From a virus: a stretch of 64,000 nucleotides of DNA. The stretch is taken from the IMG/VR virus record IMGVR_UViG_3300021962_000056, positions 1 through 64,000 of that record; one strand, given 5' to 3'. The notes under the pieces are model-generated. The model saw only the letters and a program-made list of their open reading frames with translations. It did no database searches and was not told the origin of the DNA. The number at the start of each line of letters is the position of its first letter. The first letter of the stretch is position 1. The position numbers and the translations under genes are program-made. Below are positions 1 through 62,207 of this stretch, piece by piece.

Positions 1-225
1 TTCGCTGGCTCTCTTGTCACGGTGAAGAAGGACGGACACAAGGACTGGTTCACAACGCTGACTTCGCTCCTCGCTGGAACGCTGTCGGCCAATTACCTCA
101 CCCCTGTGGTCGTTGACTTCTTCTCAATGAAAAACAGCAACACGCAGTACGCTGCGGCGTTCATCATGGGCTTCTTAGGACTCCACGGTGTCGAGTTCGT
201 CATAGATCGGTTCCGAAGGAAATGA
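1..225 (+). CDS. holin-like membrane protein (5' partial)
   Basis: Frame is open from base 1; hydrophobic segments and a basic C-terminus (DRFRRK); heads a cluster of membrane/lipoprotein genes. Confidence 0.55.
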   Translation, partial: FAGSLVTVKKDGHKDWFTTLTSLLAGTLSANYLTPVVVDFFSMKNSNTQYAAAFIMGFLGLHGVEFVIDRFRRK

Positions 226-581
226 AGCCCGAAACCATCATCAATGTCATCGCCAGCGGAGTCCTTGCCGCTGGCGTTTCTGCTTTCATGGTCATGCTCT
301 ATCGCACCGGAGGACTCGTCGAAAAGTTCCCCATGACCGGAAGCCTCGCGCTCCGCCTATCGCTCGCAGGAACAGCCGCAGGTTCACTCGGGAATTGCCT
401 CACGCTCTCAACCCCGAACGATTCCGAAATTCTGACCAACTGCGGTCTGGCCGGTATCTTCGTATGGGCCTGCATCTTCCACGCAAAACTCATAAAACAT
501 GGACCCACTTCTAAGCATCTCACAGGGACTGATGAAAGCAGCTCTGGACAAGGTTCTGGAGCAGAAGGACCAAACAAGTGA
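222..581 (+). CDS. multi-pass membrane protein (lysis region)
   Basis: 119 aa with about three hydrophobic helices; ATGA overlap with the upstream gene. Confidence 0.6.
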   Translation: MKPETIINVIASGVLAAGVSAFMVMLYRTGGLVEKFPMTGSLALRLSLAGTAAGSLGNCLTLSTPNDSEILTNCGLAGIFVWACIFHAKLIKHGPTSKHLTGTDESSSGQGSGAEGPNK

Positions 582-699
582 AGACGGAGCGAAAGACCAA
601 TCACTCGTTGCTCGCCTCAATTCTCGCATTGATGCTGCCGGGTTGCACCCCGACAAGGGTGGTGATGGTTCCTCCAGGGCAACCAGTCAGACTGGCTGA
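499..699 (+). CDS. small protein overlapping the lipoprotein gene (i-spanin-like position)
   Basis: Resembles 56601..56771 (KA.LD...EDG.....L..RI....L.PD.GG) and has the same overlap with a lipoprotein gene. Confidence 0.55.
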   Translation: MDPLLSISQGLMKAALDKVLEQKDQTSEDGAKDQSLVARLNSRIDAAGLHPDKGGDGSSRATSQTG

Positions 700-805
700 A
701 TCAGTCAAAGCCCACGTTTGGGCCAAAGACTCCGAAGGCAAAATCATCAAGAGCCGAAACCGCGTGACAATCCACGAAGGATGGTACGCACTTCCCAAGG
801 AATGA
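578..805 (+). CDS. lipoprotein, o-spanin-like
   Basis: Signal peptide with lipobox LMLPG-C; paralog of 56477..56704 (VV.VP.G.P..LAE...GWYALPK). Confidence 0.6.
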   Translation: MKTERKTNHSLLASILALMLPGCTPTRVVMVPPGQPVRLAESVKAHVWAKDSEGKIIKSRNRVTIHEGWYALPKE

Positions 806-960
806 AAAAGAACGTCCCAACGAACAAGTCGCTCTACAGCAAGATGAAGGCGGCGGCGAAAGCCAAGTTCGACGTTTATCCCAGCGCATACGCTAATGGC
901 TGGCTTGTTCGCGAGTACAAGCGGCGTGGCGGCAAATACAAGGTTGCCGATGTCAGGTAA
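802..960 (+). CDS. small basic phage protein (YPSAYANGWLVREYKRRGGKY)
   Basis: ATG at 802 overlaps the upstream stop; Lys/Arg-rich motif recognised from phage hypothetical proteins. Confidence 0.7.
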   Translation: MKKNVPTNKSLYSKMKAAAKAKFDVYPSAYANGWLVREYKRRGGKYKVADVR

Positions 961-1222
961 TAAGCCGCAGAGGGGAGGGCTTGGCCGATGGTTCGCCGAG
1001 AAATGGGTGGACATCAAAACCGGAAAGCCGTGCGGTCGTCAGGAGGGTGAGGAACGCGCCGGATATCCCGCCTGTAGGCCAACAAAGCGTATCAGCGAGA
1101 AGACTCCCAAGACTCTTGGCGAGATGAGCAGTGCGGAGAAGACTAGGTTCAAGCGCGAGAAAACCAGCTTCCAGAAGATCGGCTACCAGCATAGGATGCG
1201 GAAGAAGAAGGAAAAATTATGA
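950..1222 (+). CDS. small basic phage protein (RWFAEKWVD...CGR...YPACRP)
   Basis: ATG at 950; motif recognised from phage hypothetical proteins. Confidence 0.7.
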   Translation: MSGNKPQRGGLGRWFAEKWVDIKTGKPCGRQEGEERAGYPACRPTKRISEKTPKTLGEMSSAEKTRFKREKTSFQKIGYQHRMRKKKEKL

Positions 1223-1365
1223 GCAATAACGCACCGTACAAAGGTTCTCCGTCTGTATCCCGATCCGGCGGTAGCGGACCCTACAAACAGTCGCCGCCTC
1301 CCAAGCCTCCGGTAAGGCCGCAACCTAAGCCGGTTCCGAGCGGAAGCGGTCCGTATCGTAAGTGA
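1219..1365 (+). CDS. 48-aa Pro/Ser/Gly-rich basic microprotein (not in ORF track)
   Basis: MSNNAPYKGSPSVSRSGGSGPYKQSPPPKPPVRPQPKPVPSGSGPYRK; ATGA overlap upstream, ends just before a hairpin. Confidence 0.5.
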   Translation: MSNNAPYKGSPSVSRSGGSGPYKQSPPPKPPVRPQPKPVPSGSGPYRK

Positions 1366-1374
1366 TTTGAAACG

Positions 1375-1418
1375 AAAAGCCCCCGGCGGTAATCGAAACC
1401 ATCGGGGGCTAATTGTTT
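1375..1418. terminator. probable bidirectional intrinsic terminator
   Basis: AGCCCCCGG..TCGGGGGCT stem with AAAA on the left and a T-rich tail on the right, between convergent genes. Confidence 0.65.
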
Positions 1419-1430
1419 CGGCGTAGCGCG

Positions 1431-2630
1431 TCAGCGTCCTAACGATTTCATCACACTGGCAACGAAGTCTTCGCTCTTCGCAGAGTTTGTGCTTGCCGGT
1501 CGTGAGCCGCCGGTCGTCGCTTTCGAGGTAACTCCCGGCTCGCTGCCACGATACTTCGACAGTTCGGCTTGGAGACGCTTGTTCACCTCGACCTGAGCAT
1601 AGAGAAGCTCGCGGTATTTTGGCGCAGCAGCAGCCCAAAGAGCAGCCTTGGCGAGGTCTTCTTCGCTGTTCTCACCGTTGAAGATTTGCTGCGCGAGGTT
1701 CAGACGCTCGTTCAGCTCGCCATTCCATTCCTCATCGCCTTCACGCGGCTCAAAGATTTCAAGCGCGCGAGCATTCTCGCTGACCTTGGCCCAAGTCTTA
1801 CTGGCCGACTCCAATGCAGCCTTCGTACCCTCTTCGTTATCCTGCTGGTACTTCGAGATGATGGCGTCGTAATCGGACTTGGCTTCCGAAATCTCAGCGG
1901 AACGTTCGCCGTTAATCTCGTCGTACTTCACGATCAGCGCGCCGAGCTTTGCCTTCTTGGACGGAGAAAGACCCTCAACGATGTCGTCGATCTGCGAGTT
2001 GCGGTAATCGCTCTCGGGCGACTTGAGTAGGCCAACGAGCCGTTCGCCATCGCTGCCAACAAGACTTTTCACCGATTCAAATACGCCATTGATCTTGCCT
2101 TCGTACTTCTTGACGAACTCAGGATGACGTTCGACATCAAGAAGGCGGACACGCTCGGAAAGCGCATCACGCTCCTCCTGCAACGTCTTTAGCTGGGCTT
2201 CAAAGTTCGGATTGCTGGTTTTTCCAGCCTTCAATTCCTCAAGTTGTTTGGCCAACTGAGCCTTCTCTTCCTTGATCTTGCGAAACGCATCAGCGGCTTT
2301 AGTGGACTTGATCGTCTCGGGAATATCGGAATCAGCGTCCGTAGAAGTCGGAGCGGCCTCGGCTTCGGGCTGCTGCTTCTTCGTACCGAACATCCGCTCG
2401 ATGTCCATCTCAGCCTTGCTAAGTTTGGAGGCGTCTGCCGACTTCGTTTGCTTCGTAGGCTTCTGCTTCGCGGCTTTCGGCTCCTCAGTAACCTGCGATG
2501 CAACATTGGCCGACTCGTCAGCCGATGCGGCGTCATCAATGCCGTTAGCCTTGAAAGCATCGATGAACGAGCTTCCGAAGTCGGGAGGTTGCGCCGAGTT
2601 GACGAGAGGTGAGTTCAGTGGTTCTTCCAT
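1431..2630 (-). CDS. capsid scaffolding-like protein (module A)
   Basis: Acidic coiled coil downstream of the portal; paralog of 54828..56081 (E...KYE motif; C-terminal R.SEPG). Confidence 0.65.
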   Translation of the reverse strand: MEEPLNSPLVNSAQPPDFGSSFIDAFKANGIDDAASADESANVASQVTEEPKAAKQKPTKQTKSADASKLSKAEMDIERMFGTKKQQPEAEAAPTSTDADSDIPETIKSTKAADAFRKIKEEKAQLAKQLEELKAGKTSNPNFEAQLKTLQEERDALSERVRLLDVERHPEFVKKYEGKINGVFESVKSLVGSDGERLVGLLKSPESDYRNSQIDDIVEGLSPSKKAKLGALIVKYDEINGERSAEISEAKSDYDAIISKYQQDNEEGTKAALESASKTWAKVSENARALEIFEPREGDEEWNGELNERLNLAQQIFNGENSEEDLAKAALWAAAAPKYRELLYAQVEVNKRLQAELSKYRGSEPGVTSKATTGGSRPASTNSAKSEDFVASVMKSLGR

Positions 2631-2636
2631 AATCTA

Positions 2637-2960
2637 TTAGTATTGCTTATCGAATGTTGCTTCTGGTTCTTTCGCTGTTTCAGTTACTGCCAATTTACGA
2701 AGGTTTTCAAGACAATGCGCGTAGCCAGCGGTTACACCGGCTGCGAAAATGATGTCCGATTCCTTGCTTCCATGCGACGGCATTGGAACCGGCATTGACT
2801 CTGCAACGATGCGTAATGCCATGCGGAGGACAGGCATGTTCAGGATCTGCGCTAGTTCAGCCTGTTGGCCATCAGTCTGCCAATCGGACAGATTGATGTC
2901 AGGCAGATCCAGCAGGTTCTTCGGATTCTCCTTCTTCAAGCCTCTTAGCCAGTTGATCAT
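2637..2960 (-). CDS. small portal-scaffold linked protein
   Basis: Positional and weak sequence counterpart of 54568..54831. Confidence 0.55.
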   Translation of the reverse strand: MINWLRGLKKENPKNLLDLPDINLSDWQTDGQQAELAQILNMPVLRMALRIVAESMPVPMPSHGSKESDIIFAAGVTAGYAHCLENLRKLAVTETAKEPEATFDKQY

Positions 2961-4245
2961 ATTTTGTTTTCTTGTTTCGTTTCAGTTTGTGCCTTTGCGG
3001 AATCGGATCGAGAACATCGTCGAGTTTGATTGGATTCTCCTTGTTGACGACATCGCGATTAGGTCTGATGACCTTTGTAATCTCCAGCAAATCAGATAAC
3101 GGCAACTTGATGTACCCGCAGTCAACATCGTTGATGCCGTACGAAACGACGAATTGATTCTTCGCGGAATCGTAGAATGCGCCGCACGGGAAGACGACTG
3201 CTGGAAGTCCCGGCCACCAGTCTTGCTGGTTGGTTCCGGTGAGGATCGGCAACGTCGTCATGCGCACAATGCGGAACGGGGCTTTTGCCTCAAATGCGTA
3301 CGCCCCCATGTAGTAGCGACGCTTCTTGTTTATCCACGGCAAAGAGCTGTGGAAGAAGGTCCAATACAAGCCATCCACCAGAATCGGATTTGACCCGCCG
3401 CGAACCTCGCCAAATTTCCAGAGCGGATTGAACTCCTCGGTGACGTATTCGGCATCCTTCTCAAGACGTCCATTAAGGCGCACAACAACATGGGGATTGG
3501 CCGAATACACCATGTGTGGCGCATTGTCGTGGACGAAGTAGACCCAGTTCTTTTCATGGCCATCGTTAATCATGGCCTGCGCGTTGTTGTTTCCGTAGAC
3601 CGTATCAAAACGTCCCACGTTTAAAAACTGGCTGTCCAAGAGAAACATCGCCTGATGCGCGTACGACTTGAGCGGAACAAACGTGCAGCAGCTCAGGCCG
3701 TACTTGTCTCCAAACTTAACGACGCGAGGATCTTCGAACTGCTCGTTTGGATATTGAAAAGTAAGCTGAACCAAAGCCTTTTTTATGGCTCTCAAATCTT
3801 TGCTCAACTCAAAGACAACGATGTCGTTTTTCTCGACATAGACATCCTCATCTTTTTCGCGTTTATTGCGGCATCGGCGAGCAAAGAGAAGGATTTTTCC
3901 ACTAGGCTCCTCTCGCGTAATGGCTGGGTTGAAGTAGTATGTTCCAGCTTCTTTAGGGAGAATTATTTTCCCGACCTCCCAGTCAACTTGATGAGCTAGT
4001 TTGGGTACGTCGTTTTTTGCGTAGCTCATTAGAAACTCGGCTGCGAATTTGATTTCGTCGTACAGAGCAAGCCAGTGGTCGCGTTCCTCACGGACCTCGG
4101 TCAGATGCTCCTCATGCTCCTTTGTCCTGACATCTATTGTATTTTGTAAATTTTCGATCTGCATCAGAAGATCGGCATGCCCGTCACCTCCATTTGCGAA
4201 TCGCTTGAGAGCTTTTATGGATAGGCTTCGAATGATGTCTTTCAT
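2899..4245 (-). CDS. five-bladed beta-propeller glycoside hydrolase/phosphorylase-like protein (GH130-like) with N-terminal coiled coil
   Basis: Motifs FNPAI, EDPRV, EKNW, RGG, FFHS, VVFPCG, SYGIND. Confidence 0.7.
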   Translation of the reverse strand: MKDIIRSLSIKALKRFANGGDGHADLLMQIENLQNTIDVRTKEHEEHLTEVREERDHWLALYDEIKFAAEFLMSYAKNDVPKLAHQVDWEVGKIILPKEAGTYYFNPAITREEPSGKILLFARRCRNKREKDEDVYVEKNDIVVFELSKDLRAIKKALVQLTFQYPNEQFEDPRVVKFGDKYGLSCCTFVPLKSYAHQAMFLLDSQFLNVGRFDTVYGNNNAQAMINDGHEKNWVYFVHDNAPHMVYSANPHVVVRLNGRLEKDAEYVTEEFNPLWKFGEVRGGSNPILVDGLYWTFFHSSLPWINKKRRYYMGAYAFEAKAPFRIVRMTTLPILTGTNQQDWWPGLPAVVFPCGAFYDSAKNQFVVSYGINDVDCGYIKLPLSDLLEITKVIRPNRDVVNKENPIKLDDVLDPIPQRHKLKRNKKTKYDQLAKRLEEGESEEPAGSA

Positions 4246-4875
4246 TCACGCATACAAATTTGAATTCTCCTGAGTGGCCAGTCTTGGAAGAATTCCGTAG
4301 AAGTTCATCCTGGGCATTGAATCGACCAGCATTTGGATGTCGATTGGACACCAAACTTTTTGATTTGTCTCAAGCAATTTGCATGCGCCTTCGTAGTTTA
4401 CGAGGTAGCAGTGCGTACACATTCCGCGAACGAGCTTGTAAAGGTTGGACGCGATGTGTCCATGATCCTCAATCGGATCAGCGCAGCAGCTTCCAATGTA
4501 AACGACATGCCAGTCATTTGGGAGATGATCGAGATTTTCTGACAACTTATCCTTCCAGTCAGCACATGTGAACTCAACATCATCTTCTACAACCAAGAAG
4601 GTGCGATGATCAGTTGTTTTCGATTCAACCATCCACTTGATGGCCGACCAAATTGAAAAGTGACTCAATCCAGCAACGATGGTTTTTACTTTTATTTTTT
4701 CTTTTTCAGTCGAGTGATAGTAATCGGTGGATATTCCGCAGTTGTCTGATCTAAATCCGTAAATTGGAACTGCATCGATTCCAAAAGTCTTCATGTACCG
4801 GATGCAGCGTCTTTCCTTTTTGTTTTCAGGTTTTGAAACTATGAAGCAAGGTGTATTCTCAAGTTTTATTTTCAT
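4246..4875 (-). CDS. glycosyltransferase family 25-like
   Basis: LSH...W, LVVEDDV, LP.DW.VVYIG, THCYLV, PIDI. Confidence 0.75.
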   Translation of the reverse strand: MKIKLENTPCFIVSKPENKKERRCIRYMKTFGIDAVPIYGFRSDNCGISTDYYHSTEKEKIKVKTIVAGLSHFSIWSAIKWMVESKTTDHRTFLVVEDDVEFTCADWKDKLSENLDHLPNDWHVVYIGSCCADPIEDHGHIASNLYKLVRGMCTHCYLVNYEGACKLLETNQKVWCPIDIQMLVDSMPRMNFYGILPRLATQENSNLYA

Positions 4876-5462
4876 CGGTTCGGAAGGATGTAAATTATTC
4901 CCCGACGCGCTCCGGTAGATCGGCTTGGGTGGTTATAGTAAAAACTGTATCCGTATCTTTGTGTTTGTGTTTTTGCCCTGTAAATTGAGTCCAATTTCTG
5001 CTTGATGTATCCAAGGCAAATGTCGTGGCCTTTGTAACTGTCGTATCCGAGTTCCCCGGTTGGTTCCCTGCAATCGTGAATGGCGATTACCGGATGCAGA
5101 TCATAACGATTGATTGTCTCAAGCTCATCAAGCAGCGGAAGATAATCGTTCCAGTGAGCATCAAGAAAAAAAATTGTATCGTGTCCAACTCCGTGATGCG
5201 GAATGAACCAGTTCATGCAGGACTCGCTGCTTCCCTCAAACATTTCGACGTAGACATTCTCTCTCTTGAATCTTTCCTTGGCCTTCTCAACGCGATCATG
5301 GTCTAGCTCGCATGAAACGGTTTTGAGGAAGTTTTTTGCAAGCCAGATAGTTGTATCCCCTTTGTGAGTTCCAGTTTCAACGGCAGTTGTCAGCTCAAAG
5401 CGTTCTTTGAGATAAAGAAACTCCTGCTCGATAAATGTGTCCCCGTTGAAAGGTGAATCCAT
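4872..5462 (-). CDS. class I SAM-dependent methyltransferase-like
   Basis: VETGTHKGDT, SCELD, EGSS, FFLDAHW; start refined to ATG 5462. Confidence 0.65.
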   Translation of the reverse strand: MDSPFNGDTFIEQEFLYLKERFELTTAVETGTHKGDTTIWLAKNFLKTVSCELDHDRVEKAKERFKRENVYVEMFEGSSESCMNWFIPHHGVGHDTIFFLDAHWNDYLPLLDELETINRYDLHPVIAIHDCREPTGELGYDSYKGHDICLGYIKQKLDSIYRAKTQTQRYGYSFYYNHPSRSTGARRGIIYILPNR

Positions 5463-5466
5463 AATT

Positions 5467-6069
5467 TTAATCAGATAAATGGCAGTCTTCTTGGTCGGCA
5501 ACTCGCGGAAAAATCGTGAAGCACCTCAGATGTTGCCTACTTTTGAAGTACATCTGCAAATCGATTGGTGCGAAAATTTCCTCGTTAGTGTCGATCAGTG
5601 TTTTTAGTGCCTTTTTCCGCACGATGTAGCAGTGGGTGCAAAGAGCCATACCCTCGAACAAATTTGAATCAAACTCCCTGCCCATTCTTCCGCTCGCGCA
5701 ACATGAACCGGGATACAGGATATCCCAATCATGTGGCAACTTTGTCAGGGCGAGTTCAACGGTTTCTCTCCAGTGCGGACGAAAAATGATGTCGTCTTCC
5801 AGAATCATCACCATGTCTGGAGTGGACGGCTCAAAATCGAGAGCATTCCAAAGCATCCAGTGGGACATGCTGCATCCAACATGTTTTGCCCCGATGAGAT
5901 ATCCAGAGCCTGGGTTGTCCACTTCGTACGGAATGCTTGCCTTGAGTCCAGACCTTGCCCCATTCAGCCCATAGAAAATGCGGTAGTCCGTGATTCCAGC
6001 GGAATCAAGATTGGTTTGCAAACGCGGGATGCGGGAGCTGCCACGCATCGTGATAACAACCGTATGCAC
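5467..6069 (-). CDS. glycosyltransferase family 25-like
   Basis: GCSMSH..LW, ILEDDI, LPHDWDILY, THCYIV, PIDL; paralog of 4246..4875. Confidence 0.8.
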   Translation of the reverse strand: MHTVVITMRGSSRIPRLQTNLDSAGITDYRIFYGLNGARSGLKASIPYEVDNPGSGYLIGAKHVGCSMSHWMLWNALDFEPSTPDMVMILEDDIIFRPHWRETVELALTKLPHDWDILYPGSCCASGRMGREFDSNLFEGMALCTHCYIVRKKALKTLIDTNEEIFAPIDLQMYFKSRQHLRCFTIFPRVADQEDCHLSD

Positions 6070-6073
6070 GGGG

Positions 6074-6691
6074 TTATTTCAGTTTTCGATAAATGGCGAA
6101 GCAGCTTTCGTTCAGGTCAAAGCGAGAGATAAATTCGCAACGCTTGAGAACGAACTTCAACGCGGTTTGCGTCGATTCCCAGTTCACATCATCCATGATG
6201 ATGTATCCGCCAACCTTGAGCTTTGGAAGCCAGTTGACGACATCGCTCGTAGACGGCCATTCGGCGTGATTTGCGTCGATATGAACCATGTCCATATCTG
6301 GCAGGAATCGCGATGCATCCCAAGACGACATACGGCAGAATTGGATGTGGCGAACAACCTGAGCGCGAACGCAGTGGCGCACAAAAGCCTCGTAGTGGTT
6401 GTCCAAATCGAGTTTTGACCACCACTCTTGGTTCGCGCTCACCTCGTCATCGATGCAGTCTTCTTTCTTCCAAGAGTCGATAGCATAGACGGTTCCGCTT
6501 CCGTTCAACTTGCATGCTTGCGCGAGAGCGAGCGTTGACTTGCCTTCAAAGACGCCAATTTCAGCGATTCGTTGCGGCTTTGTTTCAAGAACAAGTTTGG
6601 CAATTTCCAAACCTTTTCTCGGGTCGCACCAGCCAGCCATCTGGCGGAAGTTTTCTAGGATGAACTGAGCTATTTTTTCTTCGTTTTCCAT
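6074..6691 (-). CDS. class I SAM-dependent methyltransferase (Methyltransf_24-like)
   Basis: EIGVFEGKST, AIDSW, VHIDANH, LKVGGYIIMDD. Confidence 0.8.
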   Translation of the reverse strand: MENEEKIAQFILENFRQMAGWCDPRKGLEIAKLVLETKPQRIAEIGVFEGKSTLALAQACKLNGSGTVYAIDSWKKEDCIDDEVSANQEWWSKLDLDNHYEAFVRHCVRAQVVRHIQFCRMSSWDASRFLPDMDMVHIDANHAEWPSTSDVVNWLPKLKVGGYIIMDDVNWESTQTALKFVLKRCEFISRFDLNESCFAIYRKLK

Positions 6692-6693
6692 AC

Positions 6694-8943: not shown

Positions 8944-9563
8944 GGTCGTTTTTTCCAGCAGTGAGCCGGTAAGTTTTCGTTCTCTGTAGCGTCCGTGAAG
9001 CGGTGAAGTGTTTCAATGGGAAACCACACCATGCTTCTGATAAAGCAACCACAAAATTCACAGCTCTGAACCTGCTCATCGTATGGCGTACTGCCGTGCT
9101 GCGAGAAGGTTTTTACAGCTTCTTTGAGGACGCGAGCATTGCATCCGGTACATCCAAGTGGCTTGCGATTGAACCGGCAACCTGAGCAGATGTTTGCGCG
9201 GCGGTTGGCTTCTTCTTGGCTGACTTTGCCGCCTCCAACCGTCAGGCCATGAAGCAAACTCATGCTGAACCGGATAACGTCGCCAATCTGGAGCGACTTC
9301 CGGCCTGCTGGTTTTGGAATTTCAACGTCGTCGTAAGCGCAATCGGCACCATTTTTACAGATGTACTCCAGCATCAAGTCGTCCAAATTTGGCGGGACTT
9401 CAATGGCGTTGGCGGCGTAATGCCTCCTGACAAATTCGTGGAGTTGCGGCCATGATCCTGCGAAAACCTCGATTCCGGTTTCTGGAACGCGATAAATCCA
9501 ACCGCCTGGAAGCCCACGATGATCGTTTAACAGCTTGTATCCGGTATTTGATCCGTACGTCAT
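8928..9563 (-). CDS. Cys-rich (multiple CxxC) protein between TerL and portal
   Basis: CSGC, CTGC, CEFCGC, HCW; corresponds to two separate genes in module B. Confidence 0.7.
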   Translation of the reverse strand: MTYGSNTGYKLLNDHRGLPGGWIYRVPETGIEVFAGSWPQLHEFVRRHYAANAIEVPPNLDDLMLEYICKNGADCAYDDVEIPKPAGRKSLQIGDVIRFSMSLLHGLTVGGGKVSQEEANRRANICSGCRFNRKPLGCTGCNARVLKEAVKTFSQHGSTPYDEQVQSCEFCGCFIRSMVWFPIETLHRFTDATENENLPAHCWKKRPCTET

Positions 9564-11236: not shown

Positions 11237-11290
11237 AGTTTGGCCTTGCAATAGTTCTCGCTGGACTTGACGTTCTGCGAAAGGAAAATT

Positions 11291-12496: not shown

Positions 12497-12499
12497 ACC

Positions 12500-14350: not shown

Positions 14351-14351
14351 T

Positions 14352-17215: not shown

Positions 17216-17218
17216 TTT

Positions 17219-18031: not shown

Positions 18032-18036
18032 AATTT

Positions 18037-19410: not shown

Positions 19411-19413
19411 TTT

Positions 19414-44250: not shown

Positions 44251-44252
44251 GG

Positions 44253-47387: not shown

Positions 47388-47388
47388 A

Positions 47389-49428: not shown

Positions 49429-49471
49429 GACGCTTGAACCCATTGAAAGGCCATCGCAAGATTCCCGCAAG

Positions 49472-51244: not shown

Positions 51245-51245
51245 T

Positions 51246-51656: not shown

Positions 51657-51665
51657 TGCTGCCGT

Positions 51666-52290: not shown

Positions 52291-52297
52291 CACCGAT

Positions 52298-54571: not shown

Positions 54572-54831
54572 TACAATCCCCCAAGCAAGAGTTTCAGCGC
54601 GACAAGCAGCGCCTCCAATCAGTCGAGCGAATGCTCGAAACGCCCGAACTCCAAGCCGCGCTCTTGGCGGCCTTCAATAATTTCTGCTGGAACCTTCCGC
54701 CCTCGGAGAACCCGCAGCATGGCTGGAATGCCAACTGCAAGCGCGCCGGTGCGCGTGCGTTCATCGAGGAACTGAATGGTCTGGTGGAAATGCGAAAAGA
54801 AAAAACGACTCTTAATCAGAACCTCGAATGA
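54568..54831 (+). CDS. small portal-scaffold linked protein
   Basis: ATGA overlaps at both ends; counterpart of 2637..2960. Confidence 0.6.
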   Translation: MIQSPKQEFQRDKQRLQSVERMLETPELQAALLAAFNNFCWNLPPSENPQHGWNANCKRAGARAFIEELNGLVEMRKEKTTLNQNLE

Positions 54832-56081
54832 ACCCGCTGCTATCACCAGATGCCCCAACCGAACGGGGCGCAGATTATTCCGAAGCATTTTCCGGCATCG
54901 ACGCTATCGAAGGGCAAGGTCTGGACAACCCGATGGGTTCAGCGATGCCTGCGCCTGTCGCTGCACCAACTCCCGCTCCCGCTCCTGAGCCGGCCCCAGT
55001 TGCTGCCACCACCACCCCGGCTGCCGAAGCTCCGAAGCCGAAGGTTGAAGACCTGTTCAACCTGGATCGGTTCACTCCGAAGAAGGAAGATCCCGCACCT
55101 GCTGCGAAGACGGAACCCGCCAAGCCGGAACCGACCTCGATCAAGCAGTTCCGCGAGCAGTACGAGATGACCAAGAAGGAGCGCGATGATTTCGCGGCCA
55201 AGGTCTCCGAACTCGAACGCGCCAAGTCCGAGGGCACTCGCAAGGAAGTCGAAGAAGCCACCAAGGCCCTGAAGGCTGAGATGGATTCGATCCGCAAAAA
55301 CGCCGAGGAACTGGACACTGAAGTCCGGTATCTCAACTACACGCGATCTGGCGAGTACAAGCAGAAGTACGAATCGCCGCTGCGTGAAGCGTGGCAGACG
55401 GCTCTCGGAGACATCGACGGTATCCGCGTCACTGATGAAGACGGCACCGAGCGCGATGCCAATCATCAAGACATCATGACTCTCTTGAACGTGCCGGTAG
55501 CCAAGGCTGCTATCATCGCCCAGGAGACGTTCGGCCCAGCTGCGCCCGAGATGATGGCCCACCGCCGTAAGATCCTTGAACTCACTCAGTCTCGAGACAA
55601 GTCCATCGCCGAGTGGAAAGAGAAGGGCGCCCAACGCGAGATCGAGAAGTCCAAGCTCGTTGAGACCCGCCAGTCCCGGTCACGCGAGTTGTTTGAGTCG
55701 CAGTTTGCCGACTACGAGAAGACCCACGCTCAGCTGTTCGGCCGAGAGGAAGGCGATGAAGATGGAAACCGTCTGCTGGATGAAAGTGATCGCCTGATCA
55801 AGATCGCTCTGAAGGGCGAAGGCGTCGATGCTGACATGGGCTACGACGACAAGGTGGACCTGATCACCAAGGCTCAGGCTCAGGTGGCGCTACGTGCGCG
55901 GGCCTACGGGCGCGAGCGCCTGCGGGTAATCCGGCTCCAGCAGAAGGTGGCCGAACTCGAGAAGAAGGTTGGCAAGGTCCGGTCGTCTGAACCCGGCCAA
56001 GGTGAAGGCACCTCGACCGCTACCCGGGTGGCACCGAAGAACGCGGAGGACGCGATCGACGAACTTCCGTCAGCGTACTAA
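54828..56081 (+). CDS. capsid scaffolding-like protein (module B)
   Basis: Acidic coiled coil with a Pro-rich N-terminal region; paralog of 1431..2630. Confidence 0.65.
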   Translation: MNPLLSPDAPTERGADYSEAFSGIDAIEGQGLDNPMGSAMPAPVAAPTPAPAPEPAPVAATTTPAAEAPKPKVEDLFNLDRFTPKKEDPAPAAKTEPAKPEPTSIKQFREQYEMTKKERDDFAAKVSELERAKSEGTRKEVEEATKALKAEMDSIRKNAEELDTEVRYLNYTRSGEYKQKYESPLREAWQTALGDIDGIRVTDEDGTERDANHQDIMTLLNVPVAKAAIIAQETFGPAAPEMMAHRRKILELTQSRDKSIAEWKEKGAQREIEKSKLVETRQSRSRELFESQFADYEKTHAQLFGREEGDEDGNRLLDESDRLIKIALKGEGVDADMGYDDKVDLITKAQAQVALRARAYGRERLRVIRLQQKVAELEKKVGKVRSSEPGQGEGTSTATRVAPKNAEDAIDELPSAY

Positions 56082-56230
56082 CGGGCGGCCTTGCGCCTAC
56101 CAGCAGCGGCTCGGCGTTGGAACTCTTCCGCGCCGAGCTTTTTTCTGCCTATGAATGCCGCGAGAGCGCGAGGATCGTCCGCACCTTGATTCTTCAGCTT
56201 GCGGACCAGTTTGGCGTATTTGGTTTGCAT
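56078..56230 (-). CDS. small basic protein
   Basis: Paralog of 22139..22339. Confidence 0.65.
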   Translation of the reverse strand: MQTKYAKLVRKLKNQGADDPRALAAFIGRKKLGAEEFQRRAAAGRRKAAR

Positions 56231-56234
56231 AGAG

Positions 56235-56480
56235 TCACCAGGCCCGACATGACCAATACTTGGCAGACAGCTTCGTTCCCGGGGTATCGCAACCATGCCG
56301 CGCACGGAAGCTCTTCCGGTTTTTCGCGATGTGCTTCTTGATCGGCATCTTGGGATCACCGAAGCGCACCAAGCGCACCTTGCCATCTTCCTTGGCCAGC
56401 ACGGCAGACTTCTTGGACGCACCCGGCGTAGCCTTGGGCTTGTTGTAGCCGGCGAACTTCTGGCCTCGGTAGGTGATCAT
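56235..56480 (-). CDS. small basic protein (RFGDP...FRARHGC...YWSCRAW)
   Basis: Paralog of 21846..22133. Confidence 0.7.
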   Translation of the reverse strand: MITYRGQKFAGYNKPKATPGASKKSAVLAKEDGKVRLVRFGDPKMPIKKHIAKNRKSFRARHGCDTPGTKLSAKYWSCRAW

Positions 56481-56704
56481 TTGGTCTTGGGCAGAGCGTA
56501 CCACCCAGCTGGAATCTTCACAGTCGAAGGGCCGACCAGCTTACCGTCGCGGTCAAACGCGTACACGCTAGCCCGCGTCGGCTCTGCTAGCATGATCGGA
56601 TCACCGGAAGGGACCAGGACCACCTTCGTCCGGCAGCCCAGGCAAATCGGCAATACGAGCAGCCAGATCGTTCTTGAGAGGTTTGGGTGCATTTCCATCT
56701 TCAA
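56477..56704 (-). CDS. lipoprotein, o-spanin-like
   Basis: Lipobox ICLG-C; paralog of 578..805; exact start uncertain. Confidence 0.6.
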   Translation of the reverse strand: MKMEMHPNLSRTIWLLVLPICLGCRTKVVLVPSGDPIMLAEPTRASVYAFDRDGKLVGPSTVKIPAGWYALPKTK

Positions 56705-56771
56705 CCGTTGGCGCAGGCGTTTCCCGGAGCCAGTCCAGGAACGCCTTCACCAGTTGGTAGATCCAGTTCAC
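56601..56771 (-). CDS. 56-aa protein overlapping the lipoprotein gene (not in ORF track)
   Basis: MNWIYQLVKAFLDWLRETPAPTVEDGNAPKPLKNDLAARIADLPGLPDEGGPGPFR; paralog of 499..699. Confidence 0.55.
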   Translation of the reverse strand: MNWIYQLVKAFLDWLRETPAPTVEDGNAPKPLKNDLAARIADLPGLPDEGGPGPFR

Positions 56772-56782
56772 TGGTTAGTCAC

Positions 56783-56977
56783 TCACGCAGCTGGAGCAGC
56801 AGGCGGAGTCGGAGGAGTCTTGCGATTCTTCCAGACAGACCAGCCAACACCCAAGACCGTGATAAAAGCGCCGGCAAGCTCGTTCGCCTGGTCAACGGTG
56901 ACGAGGCCCTTGGCGACAAGGAACCCGCCTCCGAATGAGAGGCCGTGGCGGACGATAGACTTGATTGAGTCGTTCAT
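56783..56977 (-). CDS. holin-like two-helix membrane protein
   Basis: IVRH.L.FGGG.LV.KG...WS...K pattern. Confidence 0.6.
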   Translation of the reverse strand: MNDSIKSIVRHGLSFGGGFLVAKGLVTVDQANELAGAFITVLGVGWSVWKNRKTPPTPPAAPAA

Positions 56978-57180
56978 TTCAGAGTCATCCTACCAATCAA
57001 CTGGGCCAGCACAACCAAAACCCCAAGGCCGCCAAACAGCTTCCATTGAAACTGCTTGAGGCCTTCGAGGGTGGCTTTGATTCCGTGGATGTCGGAGACC
57101 ATACCGGCGTCTTTGTCACCGATGATGGTCTCCAGTCTCACGATACGTACCTCAAGGTTGTGAAGGTTCTCCTCCGGCAT
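56974..57180 (-). CDS. small coiled-coil protein with a C-terminal TM helix
   Basis: RI.RLE...; hydrophobic C-terminus. Confidence 0.55.
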   Translation of the reverse strand: MPEENLHNLEVRIVRLETIIGDKDAGMVSDIHGIKATLEGLKQFQWKLFGGLGVLVVLAQLIGRMTLK

Positions 57181-57337
57181 TGGTGGGCGCGGTTTGGGAT
57201 GCTGCTAGCAGAATCTTGTCTTGAAGCGGGATTCCAACGCGACCGTTTTGGCTTCCGCCGGCACGGATGGCAATCTCGATCAGTTGGACGAGATTCTGGG
57301 CTTCGGTTTGGTTGATTGTCAGCGTGATTTCGTTCAT
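57152..57337 (-). CDS. hypothetical protein
   Basis: ITL.....EA..L..LI.IA.RAGG motif; follows the tail fibre genes. Confidence 0.55.
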   Translation of the reverse strand: MNEITLTINQTEAQNLVQLIEIAIRAGGSQNGRVGIPLQDKILLAASQTAPTNAGGEPSQP

Positions 57338-57359
57338 GCGGCGTCAGCGTATGTCAGCG

Positions 57360-57785
57360 TCAAGCAGCTGGCAACTCTGAGGAAGAGGTATCAACACCTC
57401 CGACAGGAGTTTCCGCATTGACGAGCGGCGGCTCCACCTGCGGCAGCATCGGAGGCACGATCATCACCGGAGTCACCCACGGCAGCGGCGGAGCGATGAT
57501 CGGAGGGTTGATCTGGTTCTCGATCTGCTGAGTGACGTTCGCTTCGATGGCGGTCTTGTCCACGCCATTGGCATAGCACCAGCCGAGAACCTGATCCTGC
57601 GTGAGCTGATCGTACGGCGTGAAGTTCTCAGTCGGCGGAGCGAACGACGCGCTGCCGTAGCAAGTGCCGCTGTACTGATCCTGCGAGCCGTTGCAACGCC
57701 AGTCGGCGGTGATGACGACATCGGTGAGCGAGCCTTCGGTCGGGCGGACAAGAAGGCGTTCGATGATCCAGTTGATGGTAATCAT
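57360..57785 (-). CDS. tail-fibre-associated protein
   Basis: W.I..L, DVV....W, FTPYDQLT.DQVLGW, INPP....PLPW. Confidence 0.6.
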   Translation of the reverse strand: MITINWIIERLLVRPTEGSLTDVVITADWRCNGSQDQYSGTCYGSASFAPPTENFTPYDQLTQDQVLGWCYANGVDKTAIEANVTQQIENQINPPIIAPPLPWVTPVMIVPPMLPQVEPPLVNAETPVGGVDTSSSELPAA

Positions 57786-57791
57786 GGGATA

Positions 57792-59570
57792 TTAGGCTTC
57801 CAGAGCGGCAACACGGGCGGTGAGTTCCTGAATGGCTTTCACCAGCACAGGAATGAGGTCTTGGCGAACGGACTTGTAGGGAGTTTCGCCTTCGGGGGCG
57901 TTGTCCTTCCACTCGTCGATAAGGTTCGGGAACACCTGCTCAAACTCCTGAGCGATGAAACCCCTGTCACCTTTGATGTTCTTACCCTTACCTTCCTTCC
58001 AATCGAACTTGCGAGGCTTGAGGGCGAGAATCGCACCGAGGCCAACGTCGATGTCTTGGACGTTTTCCTTCAGTCGAGCATCGGAGATGGCCGAGATGGT
58101 CGTGTTAGTGGCGTAGACGGTTCCGCCCATTCCAACGTAGAAACGGTACGCAGCAGCACCGGATGAATAAGCGTGAAAAGTTGTAGCAACGTTGTTTGAA
58201 GAACTTTGTGTCGCAAACACTTCTCCGTTAGCCTTAAGTTCATGACCAACTGTTCCAAGTGAACCAGCCGTAGACTTCGCCACCAACAGATTCCCACTCG
58301 CATCCAGCGTCATCGCTTGGGTGAAGGCTATTGTTCCAGTATTAGCGGCAGCGGTGTACCAAGCGTGCTGTCCTGTTGCGGACTGTTCGTAAAGAGTGGC
58401 TTCGTCGTTTACGATGTAAGTAAAGTTACCAGCCGCGCTTTCGTAGACATTACGTCCGATGCAGGTAGAACCAGCGCTTGCAGCGGACGAGAAGTAGGTT
58501 CCAACCGCGCCGATCTGCAACGCTCGCTGAGTATTGCGCCACGCACTCGGCGTAACCCCCACGCCCACGTTTTGCGAAGCATCAATCGTAAGCGCTTCCG
58601 TCAGATTCGTTCGGAAAACAATCGACGTCGAATTGGGTGTGCCGATGACAAACTTAGTTCCATCGGTAAACAACTGACCCTGATAGGTGCCATTGATCGC
58701 AAATGTCTGCTGTGCAGTTCCAGCCGCAGGACAATCAATTCGGAATTGTCCAATTGTTGAAACATTTGATCCATAAGCATACAGCTTCGAAGCCGGACTT
58801 CCCCCCACGCCCAGCCCCGTGCTGTTGAGGGTCATGGCGGTGCCAGCGAATCCGCCGACGTTCTGGAACGTAAATACCCCCGTGGAGTCGATTGCAAAGC
58901 GAGTAGAAGCAGCCGTTTCGTCACTAATGGTAAGCTGCCCAGACGAATTTGAATTTACGGCAAATCTTCGCCCAGATCCACCGCTTGAGTTTAATTGAAG
59001 CTGTGCGCTATTTCCGCTGGATGCTTGAATGAACACCATTCCGAATCCAGACGCACCTTCAACTTGAATTCGTCCGTTTGTAGATCCATTGACTTGAAGA
59101 TCGTAACTCGGACTCGCCGTCCCAATACCAACACCAGTAGTCGTAGTGGCAAGTCGATTCGTCCGCACCGTCAGATCGCCGGTGATGGTGGCGGAGGCGA
59201 GGGTGGCGGTGCCGTCCACATACAACGTATCAGTAGCCTTGTCGTATGTGAAATCTTTGTCGGTTGCTAGTACTCCGTTATCATTGAAGATAACTCGCTT
59301 GTTACCAGCTACGCCATTCGGAGCCGGCGGAGCGTACAGGAACTTCATCAACTGGTTGGTGATGATCGACTCGATGTCGCTCTCGGGCTGGCGAACGATC
59401 AGGTAGAACTCGTCCCACAGTTGTTGCGTGGTCAGGTTCGGGTTAAGCGGCGTTCCGACGTTTGCGTTGGCAAGCGCGGCGGCCATTGTTGACCGAACCT
59501 CGGACAACGAGTTGAGGTTCAGGACCTGCTGAGCATCCGACAGCAGGGTTTGAATTGCGGGGGTAGCCAT
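57792..59570 (-). CDS. tail fibre with C-terminal intramolecular chaperone (peptidase S74)
   Basis: VGIGT.SP repeats; SDARLKENV...L.P..F.W...GFIAQE...LVKAIQEL. Confidence 0.8.
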   Translation of the reverse strand: MATPAIQTLLSDAQQVLNLNSLSEVRSTMAAALANANVGTPLNPNLTTQQLWDEFYLIVRQPESDIESIITNQLMKFLYAPPAPNGVAGNKRVIFNDNGVLATDKDFTYDKATDTLYVDGTATLASATITGDLTVRTNRLATTTTGVGIGTASPSYDLQVNGSTNGRIQVEGASGFGMVFIQASSGNSAQLQLNSSGGSGRRFAVNSNSSGQLTISDETAASTRFAIDSTGVFTFQNVGGFAGTAMTLNSTGLGVGGSPASKLYAYGSNVSTIGQFRIDCPAAGTAQQTFAINGTYQGQLFTDGTKFVIGTPNSTSIVFRTNLTEALTIDASQNVGVGVTPSAWRNTQRALQIGAVGTYFSSAASAGSTCIGRNVYESAAGNFTYIVNDEATLYEQSATGQHAWYTAAANTGTIAFTQAMTLDASGNLLVAKSTAGSLGTVGHELKANGEVFATQSSSNNVATTFHAYSSGAAAYRFYVGMGGTVYATNTTISAISDARLKENVQDIDVGLGAILALKPRKFDWKEGKGKNIKGDRGFIAQEFEQVFPNLIDEWKDNAPEGETPYKSVRQDLIPVLVKAIQELTARVAALEA

Positions 59571-59573
59571 AGG

Positions 59574-59978
59574 TCAGACAAATTCAGCGAACGTGTAGGA
59601 GGGGGAGCCGGTGGCCGCAGCGACGCTGATTGCGCCGATGTATCCGTCCAGCATCAAAGGGTCAGAGTGCTTAGAACCAGGGTTGTGTGGCGCAAGCGCA
59701 ATGTGGTAATCCAAGGTGCTAGCCCCGGTTCCGAACTTCACATACAACTCTTCGTTCTTCTGGTTCTGGAGCGTGAATTTCTTCCGCGCCGGGTTGGCAG
59801 CAGATGTAGCGGTTACAGTCCGCAGCCCACCCAGGCTGGTCGTGGTTAGAGGGGCACCTGGCGAAGCGGCCTGAATCTGCTGAAGCAGCGTGATGATCAT
59901 CGTCTGCTGCAAGCCAGGCTCCATGCAGTCAAAGCAGCCACCGAGCGTGGCCAATTCTTGAGGCGTCAATGCAGGCAT
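59574..59978 (-). CDS. probable virion protein
   Basis: Downstream of the capsid gene; R....LQN....LYV.FG beta-rich domain. Confidence 0.5.
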   Translation of the reverse strand: MPALTPQELATLGGCFDCMEPGLQQTMIITLLQQIQAASPGAPLTTTSLGGLRTVTATSAANPARKKFTLQNQKNEELYVKFGTGASTLDYHIALAPHNPGSKHSDPLMLDGYIGAISVAAATGSPSYTFAEFV

Positions 59979-59979
59979 A

Positions 59980-60243
59980 TCAGGCTTCCTCCTCCATATC
60001 CATGGATTCACCCTCAGCAGTATCCTCTTCCATGTCCTGCTTACCGGTCTCACCAAGCGTGATGCCGTCGAATCCGATGATCTCAACGGTGCCACGCGGC
60101 GTAACGCGCCAATCAACCATGGCGGTGCCGGAGTCGCCTTCGAGCTTCAGTTCTTTGGGCGGAGTAAACTCGACCGTTTCGACTTCAGATTCCATGCGGC
60201 CCATGCCGTCCATTTTTCGCTTCCGCATCATTTGTCCGTACAT
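59980..60243 (-). CDS. small acidic protein
   Basis: AAGGA before ATG 60243. Confidence 0.5.
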   Translation of the reverse strand: MYGQMMRKRKMDGMGRMESEVETVEFTPPKELKLEGDSGTAMVDWRVTPRGTVEIIGFDGITLGETGKQDMEEDTAEGESMDMEEEA

Positions 60244-60310
60244 CGTAAAATCCTTTCCTTGGTGAGAGGCTGCCAGCATCCCGGACGCTCCGGGCGGCTG
60301 CCAGCACCTC

Positions 60311-60340
60311 AAAAGGGGACCCTCCCGAAGGAGAGTCCCC
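60311..60340 (-). terminator. intrinsic terminator after the capsid gene
   Basis: GGGGACUCUCC-UUCG-GGAGGGUCCCC-UUUU on the minus strand. Confidence 0.85.
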
Positions 60341-60353
60341 GTTGATTGATTGG

Positions 60354-61973
60354 TTAGATCGAGAACTCCAACGTAACGTTGGTGCAAGGCACAACCTCGG
60401 TGGTCGTACCGAACGCGCTGCTAGCCAGCTGGATGACGTTGCCAGAGACAACGCTCCAAGTACCAGCAGCGGAGCCGAACTCGGCATCCCAGACAGTCTG
60501 CAAGGCGACAACAAGAGCAGCCACGTTGGCGGCGTTGATAGCCGCGCTGGTGATGTAGTTGTCGTTGCACAGGATGCTCTCATTCGCGTTCAACACGAAG
60601 TTCGTTCCACCGGTGACCGGAGTCGCCGTGAACTGAATCGTCGGATTGCAGACAGCGTTCGTGGAGTTGTAGTCCTGGGCAGGATCGCCCGGATCAGCAG
60701 CGCAGCCAGCGATAATCACAGGGCAGGCACCATTGACCTTGTGGAAGATCGCTTCAAGCCATTCCGGATGCTCAGGCTTCACGGCCAACTGGAAGTCAGC
60801 GATGAACTTGCCCTTGTTTCCACGGCTGTTGTCGATCGGTCGGCCGGAGCAGTCCGCGCCCAAGTCGTTGGTCGCGAACTTCCAACGCCCACCGTAATCC
60901 CGAACCATGAACGGCATATTCGGGTTCACGGCCTCGGGGCGGAACGGCAACACACGCAGAGCGCGGGGGTTGTTGATGTAGCTGATCTGGTACTGAGCCC
61001 GATCGTAATCACCGTTGAATTCAGAACGGATGCCTTCGCTCGCGGCGACGTTCTTGTACGGCAGGACCAAGGTGTAGTTGCCCGGGGTCGCCGTCGCGTT
61101 AAAACGCAGCGGGAATTGCAGCACCTTCACCATGAAGTCGCCGACGAAGCCCATGAAACCGAACTTGTAGAACTCCTTGGCAGCGGGAGCGAACTCACCG
61201 AAGCGCCAGGAGTCAGTCAGCTGGCTGTTGGACTTGGCGAGGTAACGGAAGGTTTCCTTGTCGGTGTGCAGCTGGAGGCTGTCGTAACCTTCCTTACCGG
61301 CCTGGATAGCACCCAGGAAGTACTGGCGGGTCACGCGACTGCGGAGAATGTCCGGAGTCAACAAGCCCAAGCTAGCAGCCGTAACAGGCGCGCTGGCGCT
61401 GTCGAGAACGCGCAGGGTGGTGTAACCAGCGCCAACCCAGGAGAACGAAATCGCCGGGAGACCCGCCTTACAAGCAAAAGCGCCGCCGCTGATGCCGGTA
61501 GGGGTGTAACCAGACAATTCCATCGCCTTGCGCTGGAGGTAGTAGGTGGTGATCCAGTTCGTCGCAGGGCGAAGAACGTCGTCGATGATCTGACGGAAGT
61601 GCTCCTTGGCCTTCGTCTTCGTCATGATCTGGTCGAAGCACAGAATGTCCGAGCCCCACGCCTGCTTTTCAAGCGAGTAGGTGCTGCGGGTGTAGCCCCA
61701 ACCGATCTTGTTTTCGGACGGGTCGCACGGCTGACCAACGCAACTGTCGCCAGTCGAGTTTTCCCAGGCGCCAGTCACGTTCGGGAACACGCTGTTGAAG
61801 CGGTCGAAACGATGGGTGGTGCCGGAGTACGCGTCGAACGATCCGGTGTTGTAGTATCCGATCAATCCGTCAAACGGACGGACATCTTTGAGAACTTCCT
61901 TGTCATACACAGGTTCCTGCGAGACGAGGAAGGAAGCGAACTGCTTACAGCTGATTACATTTCCACTGGCCAT
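60354..61973 (-). CDS. major capsid protein (probable), with a C-terminal accessory domain
   Basis: 539 aa with its own promoter, GGAG RBS and strong terminator; only candidate of suitable size; no diagnostic motif, so the call is contextual. Confidence 0.6.
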   Translation of the reverse strand: MASGNVISCKQFASFLVSQEPVYDKEVLKDVRPFDGLIGYYNTGSFDAYSGTTHRFDRFNSVFPNVTGAWENSTGDSCVGQPCDPSENKIGWGYTRSTYSLEKQAWGSDILCFDQIMTKTKAKEHFRQIIDDVLRPATNWITTYYLQRKAMELSGYTPTGISGGAFACKAGLPAISFSWVGAGYTTLRVLDSASAPVTAASLGLLTPDILRSRVTRQYFLGAIQAGKEGYDSLQLHTDKETFRYLAKSNSQLTDSWRFGEFAPAAKEFYKFGFMGFVGDFMVKVLQFPLRFNATATPGNYTLVLPYKNVAASEGIRSEFNGDYDRAQYQISYINNPRALRVLPFRPEAVNPNMPFMVRDYGGRWKFATNDLGADCSGRPIDNSRGNKGKFIADFQLAVKPEHPEWLEAIFHKVNGACPVIIAGCAADPGDPAQDYNSTNAVCNPTIQFTATPVTGGTNFVLNANESILCNDNYITSAAINAANVAALVVALQTVWDAEFGSAAGTWSVVSGNVIQLASSAFGTTTEVVPCTNVTLEFSI

Positions 61974-62207
61974 ATTGGCTCTCCTGCCCCGGGGGTTTTC
62001 TTCACCTACCCCTCCGAGACAACGAGGCAGATTGCAGGTCTGTTAAGACCATCAATCCAACCTCGGTGGCGAGCCCGAGCCGTGGAACCGGCGAACGCCC
62101 TTCGGCGCTCTTTGCCAACTGGAATAACGCGCCCAGTTCGCGCTTGGTTGACGAAACCAAGCTATGCGTCGTGGCGGAATGCTGCTAGCGCGCCTTCCGA
62201 GTGTCAA
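61974..62207 (-). promoter_or_regulatory. capsid-gene promoter and about 200-nt structured leader
   Basis: TTGACA (62207-62202)-N17-CAGCAT, followed by several hairpins. Confidence 0.55.

Follow-up and report, generated by a model that had tools for sequence, protein, structure and literature searches.

Whether a single phage genome can encode two complete virion-assembly gene sets is the question raised by the IMG/VR record IMGVR_UViG_3300021962_000056, a 92,531-bp linear contig rated 100% complete by CheckV, whose first 64,000 nucleotides constitute the window analysed here. An earlier note on this window described two diverged virion modules in mirror orientation, and proposed either a composite genome able to build two particle types or two related phages joined by recombination or mis-assembly, with two ancestral genomes as the favoured origin. 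Our results support the mis-joining of related phages, based on complete independent genomes and on a depth step, and speak against the composite genome. We consider, with a probability of about 0.9, that the record is a chimeric metagenome contig of two complete and separate phage genomes, generated by an assembly artefact; no two-particle phage, that is, no single phage with two portals and two terminases, is present here. The two genomes, X and Y, come from the same group of uncultured aquatic short-tailed phages, within which they are distant relatives; each encodes a podophage-type portal and an HK97 capsid.

Gene content of the two units

The contig divides cleanly into two units: X, formed by contig positions 76472..92531 followed by 1..28411 (45.6 kb including one copy of the repeat described below; GC 52.9%), and Y, at 29572..75310 (46.9 kb including one repeat copy; GC 58.4%). 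Each half carries its own full gene set, comprising TerL, portal, scaffold, capsid, fibre, helicase, primase, exonuclease and RecT-like genes. The part of X within the window (1..28411) includes lysis genes, scaffold, a glycan cassette, portal, TerL, tail genes, primase and SF2 helicase, the remainder of this unit (contig 76472-92531) being located outside the window. The part of Y within the window (29572..64000), which runs on to contig 75310, includes the exonuclease and RecT-like genes, tail genes (among them one coding for a 2456-aa protein), TerL, portal, scaffold, fibre, capsid, helicase and primase.

All-against-all BLASTP of every ORF of the 92.5-kb contig confirmed that the sequence truly contains two virion gene sets in mirror arrangement: TerL, portal, scaffold, capsid, fibre, several tail proteins, a lipoprotein and the SF2 helicase are duplicated in mirrored order, with 22-78% amino acid identity. 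The TerL of X (9560..11302, minus strand) matched the terminase large subunit family phrog_2 (E 1.8e-23), and that of Y (49388..51244, plus strand) is 29% identical to it (E 1e-62). Against GenBank phages, the former yielded distant matches only (22-24% identity) and the latter none, and no close isolate was found in that set. The portals of X (749 aa; 6694..8943, minus strand) and Y (52232..54571, plus strand) share 25% identity over 777 residues (E 2e-47), and the small proteins adjoining them (8928-9563, minus strand, and 51898-52290, plus strand) share 24%. A charged, helical protein of X (1431..2630, minus strand) pairs with 54828..56081 (plus strand) in Y, with 22% identity over 436 residues; their position and composition suggest that both are putative scaffold proteins.

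The major capsid protein of Y (539 aa; 60354..61973, minus strand) is 23% identical (E 1e-19) to a 416-aa protein encoded at contig 87947-89197 (plus strand); with the two ends of the contig connected, this gene lies 3.3-4.6 kb to the left of base 1, just where the earlier note had expected the missing capsid gene of the first module. A plus-strand ORF overlapping the Y capsid gene (60342-62219) is probably spurious. Portal, capsid and most tail proteins gave no Pfam or PHROG matches; the ESM Atlas provided no more than leads (Phage_capsid_3 and SU10_portal), which were subsequently confirmed by the folds. The AlphaFold model of the X portal (pLDDT 72) matched the podophage portals of Pan3, SU10, Carin1 and T7 in Foldseek (E 4e-10 to 1e-8), and the model of the X capsid protein displayed the HK97 capsid fold (9d82_A, E 3.6e-10; N4 capsid 9e99), with PDB matches to phages B2, N4 and Pan3; both models are of moderate confidence (pLDDT 70-72).

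Among the tail genes, a conserved protein of X (12500..14350, plus strand), with no family match, is 41% identical to its Y partner (47389..49470, minus strand; E 2e-111), and the motifs TENTFLNEGG and PVDRDVWK were verified within this pair. As previously noticed, these two motifs, as well as GNPPY and ARDLG.TSL, occur once per module and thus twice in the contig. Further pairs correspond to a Cys-rich protein (15152-16123, plus strand, and 42176-43261, minus strand; 32% identity) and to an unnamed protein (17219-18031, plus strand, and 40984-41724, minus strand; 38% identity). The claimed duplication of a "tail tube B" and an "ejection trio" found no confirmation in these searches, no BLAST, PHROG, Pfam or PDB match linking the modules for these proteins; sequence searches of the tail and ejection proteins in PHROG, Pfam and PDB gave almost no matches, and the names "tail tube A/B" and "ejection trio" are positional guesses.

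The fibre of Y (57792-59570, minus strand) displays 45-51% amino acid identity, depending on the BLAST run, to that of X (contig 90421-92058, plus strand), which matches tail-fibre PHROGs. Its small neighbour (57360-57785, minus strand) is the most conserved of the shared proteins, with 75-78% identity to contig 92060-92428 (plus strand), the others being 22-51% identical; in this region the DNA itself matches at 81% in inverted orientation (57474-58170 and contig 92368-91677). The lipoprotein gene of X (533..799, plus strand; lipobox LPGC) has its counterpart at 56486-56749 (minus strand), and tblastx placed the conserved frame on these strands; the longer ORFs opposite to them (601-1017, minus strand, and 56295-57059, plus strand) merely read these genes in antisense. 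Replication and recombination genes are doubled as well. The SF2 helicases of X (27064..28146, minus strand) and Y (62307..63803, plus strand) both match phrog_16 (E 3e-41 and 3e-102, respectively), with 22% identity. In Y, an exonuclease VIII-like gene (30338-31192, minus strand) lies beside a RecT-like gene (31129-32130, minus strand), and this region (30338..32130) matches phrog_412 (E 5.5e-65). Their X counterparts (contig 78248-79872, minus strand), which match phrog_412 and phrog_561, share 32% and 27% identity with them, respectively.

The repeat at the joins

Both joins between X and Y fall inside a direct repeat of 1,160 bp, designated R1, which consists of a shared array of small genes, with copies at 28412-29571 (plus strand) and at contig 75311-76471. 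The copies are 95.9% identical over 1161 nt, with exact runs of 336, 118, 116 and 92 bp, so that both joins lie in shared sequence with a 336-bp exact core, as expected of a contig made of two genomes. R1 is the sole long DNA repeat in direct orientation and delimits units of 45.6 kb and 46.9 kb; self-BLASTN of the contig revealed no repeats other than this 1.16-kb stretch (96% identity) and one of 0.7 kb (81%). No terminal repeats were found in the 92,531-bp contig, which IMG/VR classes as linear. Both ends of the contig belong to X and would adjoin each other but for what is probably a short gap, since the small gene truncated there has about 17 more codons in relatives.

The composition of the halves changes with the unit. 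Besides the difference in GC content, GGATCC occurs 0 times in X and 24 in Y, GCTAGC 1 and 29, and CTCGAG 0 and 7, whereas GCATGC is found 10 times in X and once in Y; CCWGG sites number 16 and 89, respectively. The same biases were observed across 2.1 Mb of contigs of the X lineage (type A) and 2.0 Mb of the Y lineage (type B), and this opposite, lineage-wide avoidance of palindromes indicates that the halves have had long separate histories.

Since two circular sequences with a common stretch would appear as a figure of eight in the graph of a short-read assembler, and both X and Y carry the near-identical R1 array in this sample, the following path may be proposed: the assembler would have started in the strain-variable lysis region of X, walked to R1, taken the wrong exit into Y, completed a full circuit of Y back to R1, and then continued through the rest of X. 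The head-to-head arrangement of the virion modules would also be explained, because the genomes are joined through a direct repeat and the structural blocks, relative to R1 and the exonuclease and RecT-like genes, are oppositely oriented in the two lineages, these recombination genes having the same orientation relative to R1 in both. Independent contigs of each lineage show that the difference in block orientation is a real architectural one.

Independent relatives and depth

Complete genomes collinear with one half or the other were found in IMG/VR as independent records with direct terminal repeats. Three are of type A (45,490, 46,144 and 46,856 bp) and three of type B (45,656, 46,343 and 47,281 bp), all of them rated 100% complete by CheckV, and a fourth type-B record (46,806 bp) is rated 60% complete (six of the seven at 100%). 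Each contains exactly one TerL homolog, while the 92,531-bp record has two. The earlier note had suggested looking for other contigs with both TerL types; none appeared, each of the ten whole records examined having a single TerL. The TerL of X has 209 relatives in IMG/VR, with 93-96% identity, and that of Y has 111; the longest contigs among the 80 matches listed for each were 46.1 and 50.3 kb, so that for these 320 relatives no contig above 50.3 kb was present among the matches listed.

The paths followed by independent loci were examined around the join. Five type-A loci run from contig 82 to 77 kb, through the R1 site, and then from 28.4 to 15.8 kb, none of them entering the sequence from 29.6 kb onwards; four type-B loci run from 38 to 29.6 kb and then from 74.9 to 67 kb. 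Each half therefore closes on itself and none enters the other. Over 290 independent loci, about 99% of the aligned bases were confined to one half; in 289 of them the other half is represented by short shared segments only, none carries both halves, and the joined form did not recur in independent samples or records. The exception (L189) is an independent 19-kb mosaic contig with type-A helicase, primase and tail backbone, together with a Y-like exonuclease and RecT (77% nucleotide identity). It does not constitute a two-genome join, although it suggests that natural recombination may occur around the R1 site.

Depth was assessed in public 2018 runs as per-contig k-mer means of Logan contigs matching the window exactly, which differ from read depth. 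By this measure, run X2 displayed 156 on the X side of R1 and 50 on the Y side, and run X1 displayed 19.7 and 15.7, only a 1.25-fold difference; R1 itself was a depth peak in all runs. As the X:Y ratio differs between samples, X and Y are not one molecule. Both signs by which the earlier note would recognise a chimera, namely each half as an independent complete genome and a depth step at the join, were thus observed.

Alternative readings and known artefacts

Among the remaining explanations, the one that survives best, though improbable, is a real cointegrate, in which co-infection and homologous recombination at R1 would have produced one 92.5-kb molecule that was correctly assembled; such a molecule, driven by RecT and exonuclease, would be, with the same low likelihood, a replication or recombination intermediate and not a packaged genome. 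A single crossover at R1 yields the very same X-R1-Y-R1-X topology, and the sequence alone therefore cannot separate a cointegrate from a mis-join. The exonuclease VIII-like and RecT-like recombinases beside R1 in both phages are consistent with it, as are the resemblance of L189 to a natural mosaic at this site and the patchy presence of R1 pieces in both lineages, which argues for real exchange there. However, the X:Y depth ratios of the two runs (3.1:1 and 1.25:1) imply that X and Y exist mostly as separate molecules; no independent record has both halves, and the join sits at the sole place where an assembler cannot decide. No Logan contig bridges R1, an observation uninformative either way, since contigs built with k=31 end wherever a stretch is shared. 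If true, a cointegrate would be a direct snapshot of cassette movement between phage lineages.

Far less credible is a genuine 92.5-kb phage genome whose two virion-assembly modules build two kinds of particles. Both modules appear intact, with open frames and conserved motifs, but each half is repeatedly found as a complete 45-47 kb genome with a single TerL and terminal repeats, GC content and lineage-wide palindrome avoidance differ between the halves, and depth steps at the join. Moreover, the doubling extends to replication and recombination genes, consistent with two entire genomes rather than with an extra module, and 92 kb of DNA would not fit into a capsid made for about 46 kb. Two prophages side by side in inverted orientation in a bacterial chromosome are equally implausible: bacterial genomes can indeed harbour related prophages next to each other, but only phage-type or unassigned genes were found across most of the contig, with no host flanks seen, no tRNA in a scan of the window and no integrase among the matches of the general gene searches, the contig ends lie within X and nearly abut, and the relatives are free genomes with terminal repeats.

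An assembly chimera has precedents. Simulation studies of short-read viral metagenomes described inter-genome chimeric contigs (PMC4247695, PMC5610896), that is, contigs assembled from the reads of two or more related viral genomes, tied to short reads and closely related genomes (PMC4247695). The present record likewise derives from more than one related genome, here joined via a shared near-identical stretch; in contrast to the simulated chimeras, both genomes are complete and fully traversed, and the product resembles one orderly genome of double length, not a patchwork. Over-length IMG/VR contigs composed of the same genome repeated, with k-mer frequency above 1, were reported with CheckV (PMC8116208). 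The record resembles them as an IMG/VR contig of about twice the expected genome length and a probable assembly artefact, but its units are two different genomes, with proteins mostly 22-51% identical and only 1.16 kb repeated. It shows no repetition of a genome sequence, and the k-mer frequency check would therefore not flag it. A record of this kind, rated 100% complete and likely to pass repeat-based concatemer checks, could contaminate statistics on genome size, clustering and claims of novel architectures.

The biology left once the artefact is set aside is real but ordinary: two abundant lineages of uncultured aquatic podophages occur together, with opposite palindrome avoidance and rearranged layouts, yet with near-identical small-gene cassettes in common. 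The portal and capsid models match those of Pan3, SU10 and T7, and of B2, N4 and Pan3, respectively (both at E 4e-10), whereas sequence identity to Pan3, SU10, T7 and N4 is only 10-14%, and the gene order differs from that of these four phages, head and tail genes being here transcribed divergently.

Gene sets on either side of a direct repeat

The window makes up the first 64 kb of one contig of 92,531 bp, which is classed as a 'linear' virus in IMG/VR with a CheckV completeness of 100%; no terminal repeat was found at the ends of this contig. Self-BLASTN of the contig revealed one long direct repeat, R1, an array of small genes (28412-29571 and 75311-76471) whose copies are 95.9% identical, with exact runs of 336, 118, 116 and 92 bp. 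R1 cuts the contig into two phage genome units, X (76472-92531 plus 1-28411) and Y (29572-75310), of 45.6 kb and 46.9 kb, respectively, when one R1 copy is counted with each. Both units carry their own full set of TerL, portal, scaffold, capsid, fibre, SF2 helicase, primase, exonuclease VIII-like and RecT-like genes.

An earlier note had described virion genes duplicated in mirrored order, and all-against-all BLASTP of the contig's ORFs recovered such pairs for TerL (29% identity), portal (25%), a scaffold-like protein (22%), the small protein adjoining the portal (24%), a large tail protein (41%), a Cys-rich protein (32%), a tail-region protein of 250-270 aa (38%) and the SF2 helicase (22%). 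The four exact motifs quoted in that note were each found once per module; its 'tail tube B' and 'ejection trio' pairs received no confirmation in any search. Beyond the window, the pairing extends to a fibre and its small neighbour (57.4-59.6 kb (-) with contig 90.4-92.4 kb (+)). A podophage portal fold was obtained for the 749-aa protein by structure prediction. The capsid gene of the X module, which had been expected left of base 1, indeed sits at contig 87947-89197 (+), the contig ends being adjoining; its product displays an HK97 capsid protein fold in the predicted structure, and pairs with that of 60354-61973 (-) (E 1e-19). Its homology to this folded X protein identifies 60354-61973 (-) as the capsid gene of Y, and therefore the longer ORF overlapping it on the opposite strand, 60342-62219 (+), is probably spurious. 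Two other long ORFs resembling a conserved pair, 601-1017 (-) and 56295-57059 (+), are antisense readings of the real conserved genes opposite them, which encode lipoproteins (about 533-799 (+) and 56486-56749 (-), with lipobox LPGC and LPIC).

Judging from type-A contigs (the IMG/VR relatives of X), the two contig ends adjoin except for a short gap, located within a small gene of a lysis region that varies between strains. The window's first gene lacks its 5' end. The gene cut by the contig ends (contig 92428-92531 plus window 1-225; MIHIELTQEQ...) is homologous to 57152-57337 (-) of Y, and its versions in relatives have about 17 more codons, indicating that the assembly broke in the strain-variable lysis region of X.

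Independent genomes, composition and depth of the two halves

X-type TerL was found in 209 IMG/VR contigs (93-96% identical to that of X among the matches listed) and Y-type TerL in 111 (mostly 90-99% identical to that of Y among the matches listed), the longest listed contig with either type being 50.3 kb. Ten near-full-length IMG/VR records were searched whole for TerL; the search of viral collections for contigs with both types, proposed in the earlier note, gave exactly one homolog in 10/10 of them, and two in the present record. Direct terminal repeats were present in three type-A records (45,490, 46,144 and 46,856 bp) and in four type-B records, i.e., relatives of Y (45,656, 46,343, 46,806 and 47,281 bp). 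The layout at the R1 site was read from independent loci centred on X's helicase and Y's RecT: type-A loci directly join contig 82->77 kb to 28.4->15.8 kb, and type-B loci join 38->29.6 kb to 74.9->67 kb. Each half therefore closes on itself in independent genomes. When 290 loci were aligned, about 99% of the aligned bases were confined to one half; the small cross-hits came from a single small gene and from the segment at the fibre end that both halves share.

The halves also differ in GC content (52.9% in X, 58.4% in Y) and in the number of sites for GGATCC (0 and 24), GCTAGC (1 and 29), CTCGAG (0 and 7), GCATGC (10 and 1) and CCWGG (16 and 89), with composition switch points falling at R1. 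The same opposite biases extend over independent contigs totalling 2.1 Mb for type A and 2.0 Mb for type B: the density of GGATCC is 0.005 per kb in the former versus 0.265 in the latter; GGATCC, GCTAGC and CTCGAG are nearly absent and CCWGG is scarce in type A, and GCATGC and GAATTC are scarce in type B. Since they hold across independent contigs, these biases are lineage traits, each half following its own lineage, and the halves have separate histories. The opposite palindrome avoidance suggests differing restriction pressures or differing hosts.

Of the words sampled from 24.5-33.5 kb, 94-95% are present in two public runs, X1 and X2, whose Logan contigs are exact matches to the window for kilobases to either side of R1. 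The depth comparison called for in the earlier note was made as k-mer depth of Logan contigs, not read depth, and differed between the X and Y sides of R1 (156 vs 50 in X2; 19.7 vs 15.7 in X1), being highest over R1. An X:Y ratio that departs from 1 and varies between samples is incompatible with one molecule. No Logan contig bridging R1 was found in the runs examined, where k=31 contigs break at any shared stretch.

Origin of the joined contig

The earlier note had left the choice between a composite genome building two particle types and two phages joined by recombination or mis-assembly. With the independent genomes and the depth step, the observation in that note stands and its interpretation is supported in part: mis-assembly of two phage genomes is the right alternative, at a probability of roughly 0.9, and the dual-module phage is not a real feature. 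Two circles sharing a stretch that short reads cannot resolve would form a figure of eight in the assembly graph, and a walk through both loops would yield X-R1-Y-R1-X, the structure of the contig. R1 and the adjoining exonuclease and RecT genes are oriented alike in X and Y; relative to them, the block of structural genes (capsid, fibre, scaffold, portal, TerL, tail) runs in opposite directions in the two units. This difference between lineages is real, as independent contigs of each show the same layouts, and joining via R1 would set the two virion modules head to head. Simulation studies have described chimeric contigs of this kind (PMC4247695). The work on CheckV noted IMG/VR contigs of excessive length (PMC8116208); however, those consist of the same genome repeated and are caught by a k-mer check, which would not flag two differing units as in the present contig.

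A real X::Y cointegrate, produced by one crossover in R1 during co-infection by both phages, would have an identical sequence; it appears unlikely given the depth ratios, even with recombinases beside R1 in both phages and R1 cassettes patchy in both lineages (16/80 type-A and 7/50 type-B loci). A further point in its favour is locus L189 (IMGVR_UViG_3300042884_000669, a 19-kb contig, 113-7015), in which type-A helicase, primase and tail genes are coupled to exonuclease and RecT genes of Y type (77% nt) adjoining the cassette array; L189 would reflect either natural mosaicism or a further assembly chimera. A true dual-particle phage is extremely improbable, each unit having its own independent genomes.

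Cassettes, relatives and additional genes of X

The R1 array is 96% identical between phages whose other shared proteins are mostly 22-51% identical, and single R1 cassettes of 100-440 nt are scattered in both lineages at 73-96% identity (loci L163-L288). Such sharing suggests that cassettes are still being exchanged between the lineages, which perhaps have a host in common. Portal homologs 87% identical to that of X (P0134, P0140) were found in GenBank MAGs that carry the names Pirellula sp. and Actinomycetes bacterium; as phage contigs binned into unrelated MAGs, they provide no usable evidence on the host.

Between its portal and scaffold-side genes, X carries five extra genes (2899-6691 (-)): a GH130-like gene (Pfam E 4.5e-10), two glucosyltransferase-like genes, one with a methyltransferase-like match, and 4872-5501, for which family searches gave no match. 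The corresponding place in Y has no such block. In the X tail operon, a 188-aa ORF (16114-16680 (+)) matches the citrate synthase C-terminal domain (Pfam PF00285, E 2e-9, above the cut-off).
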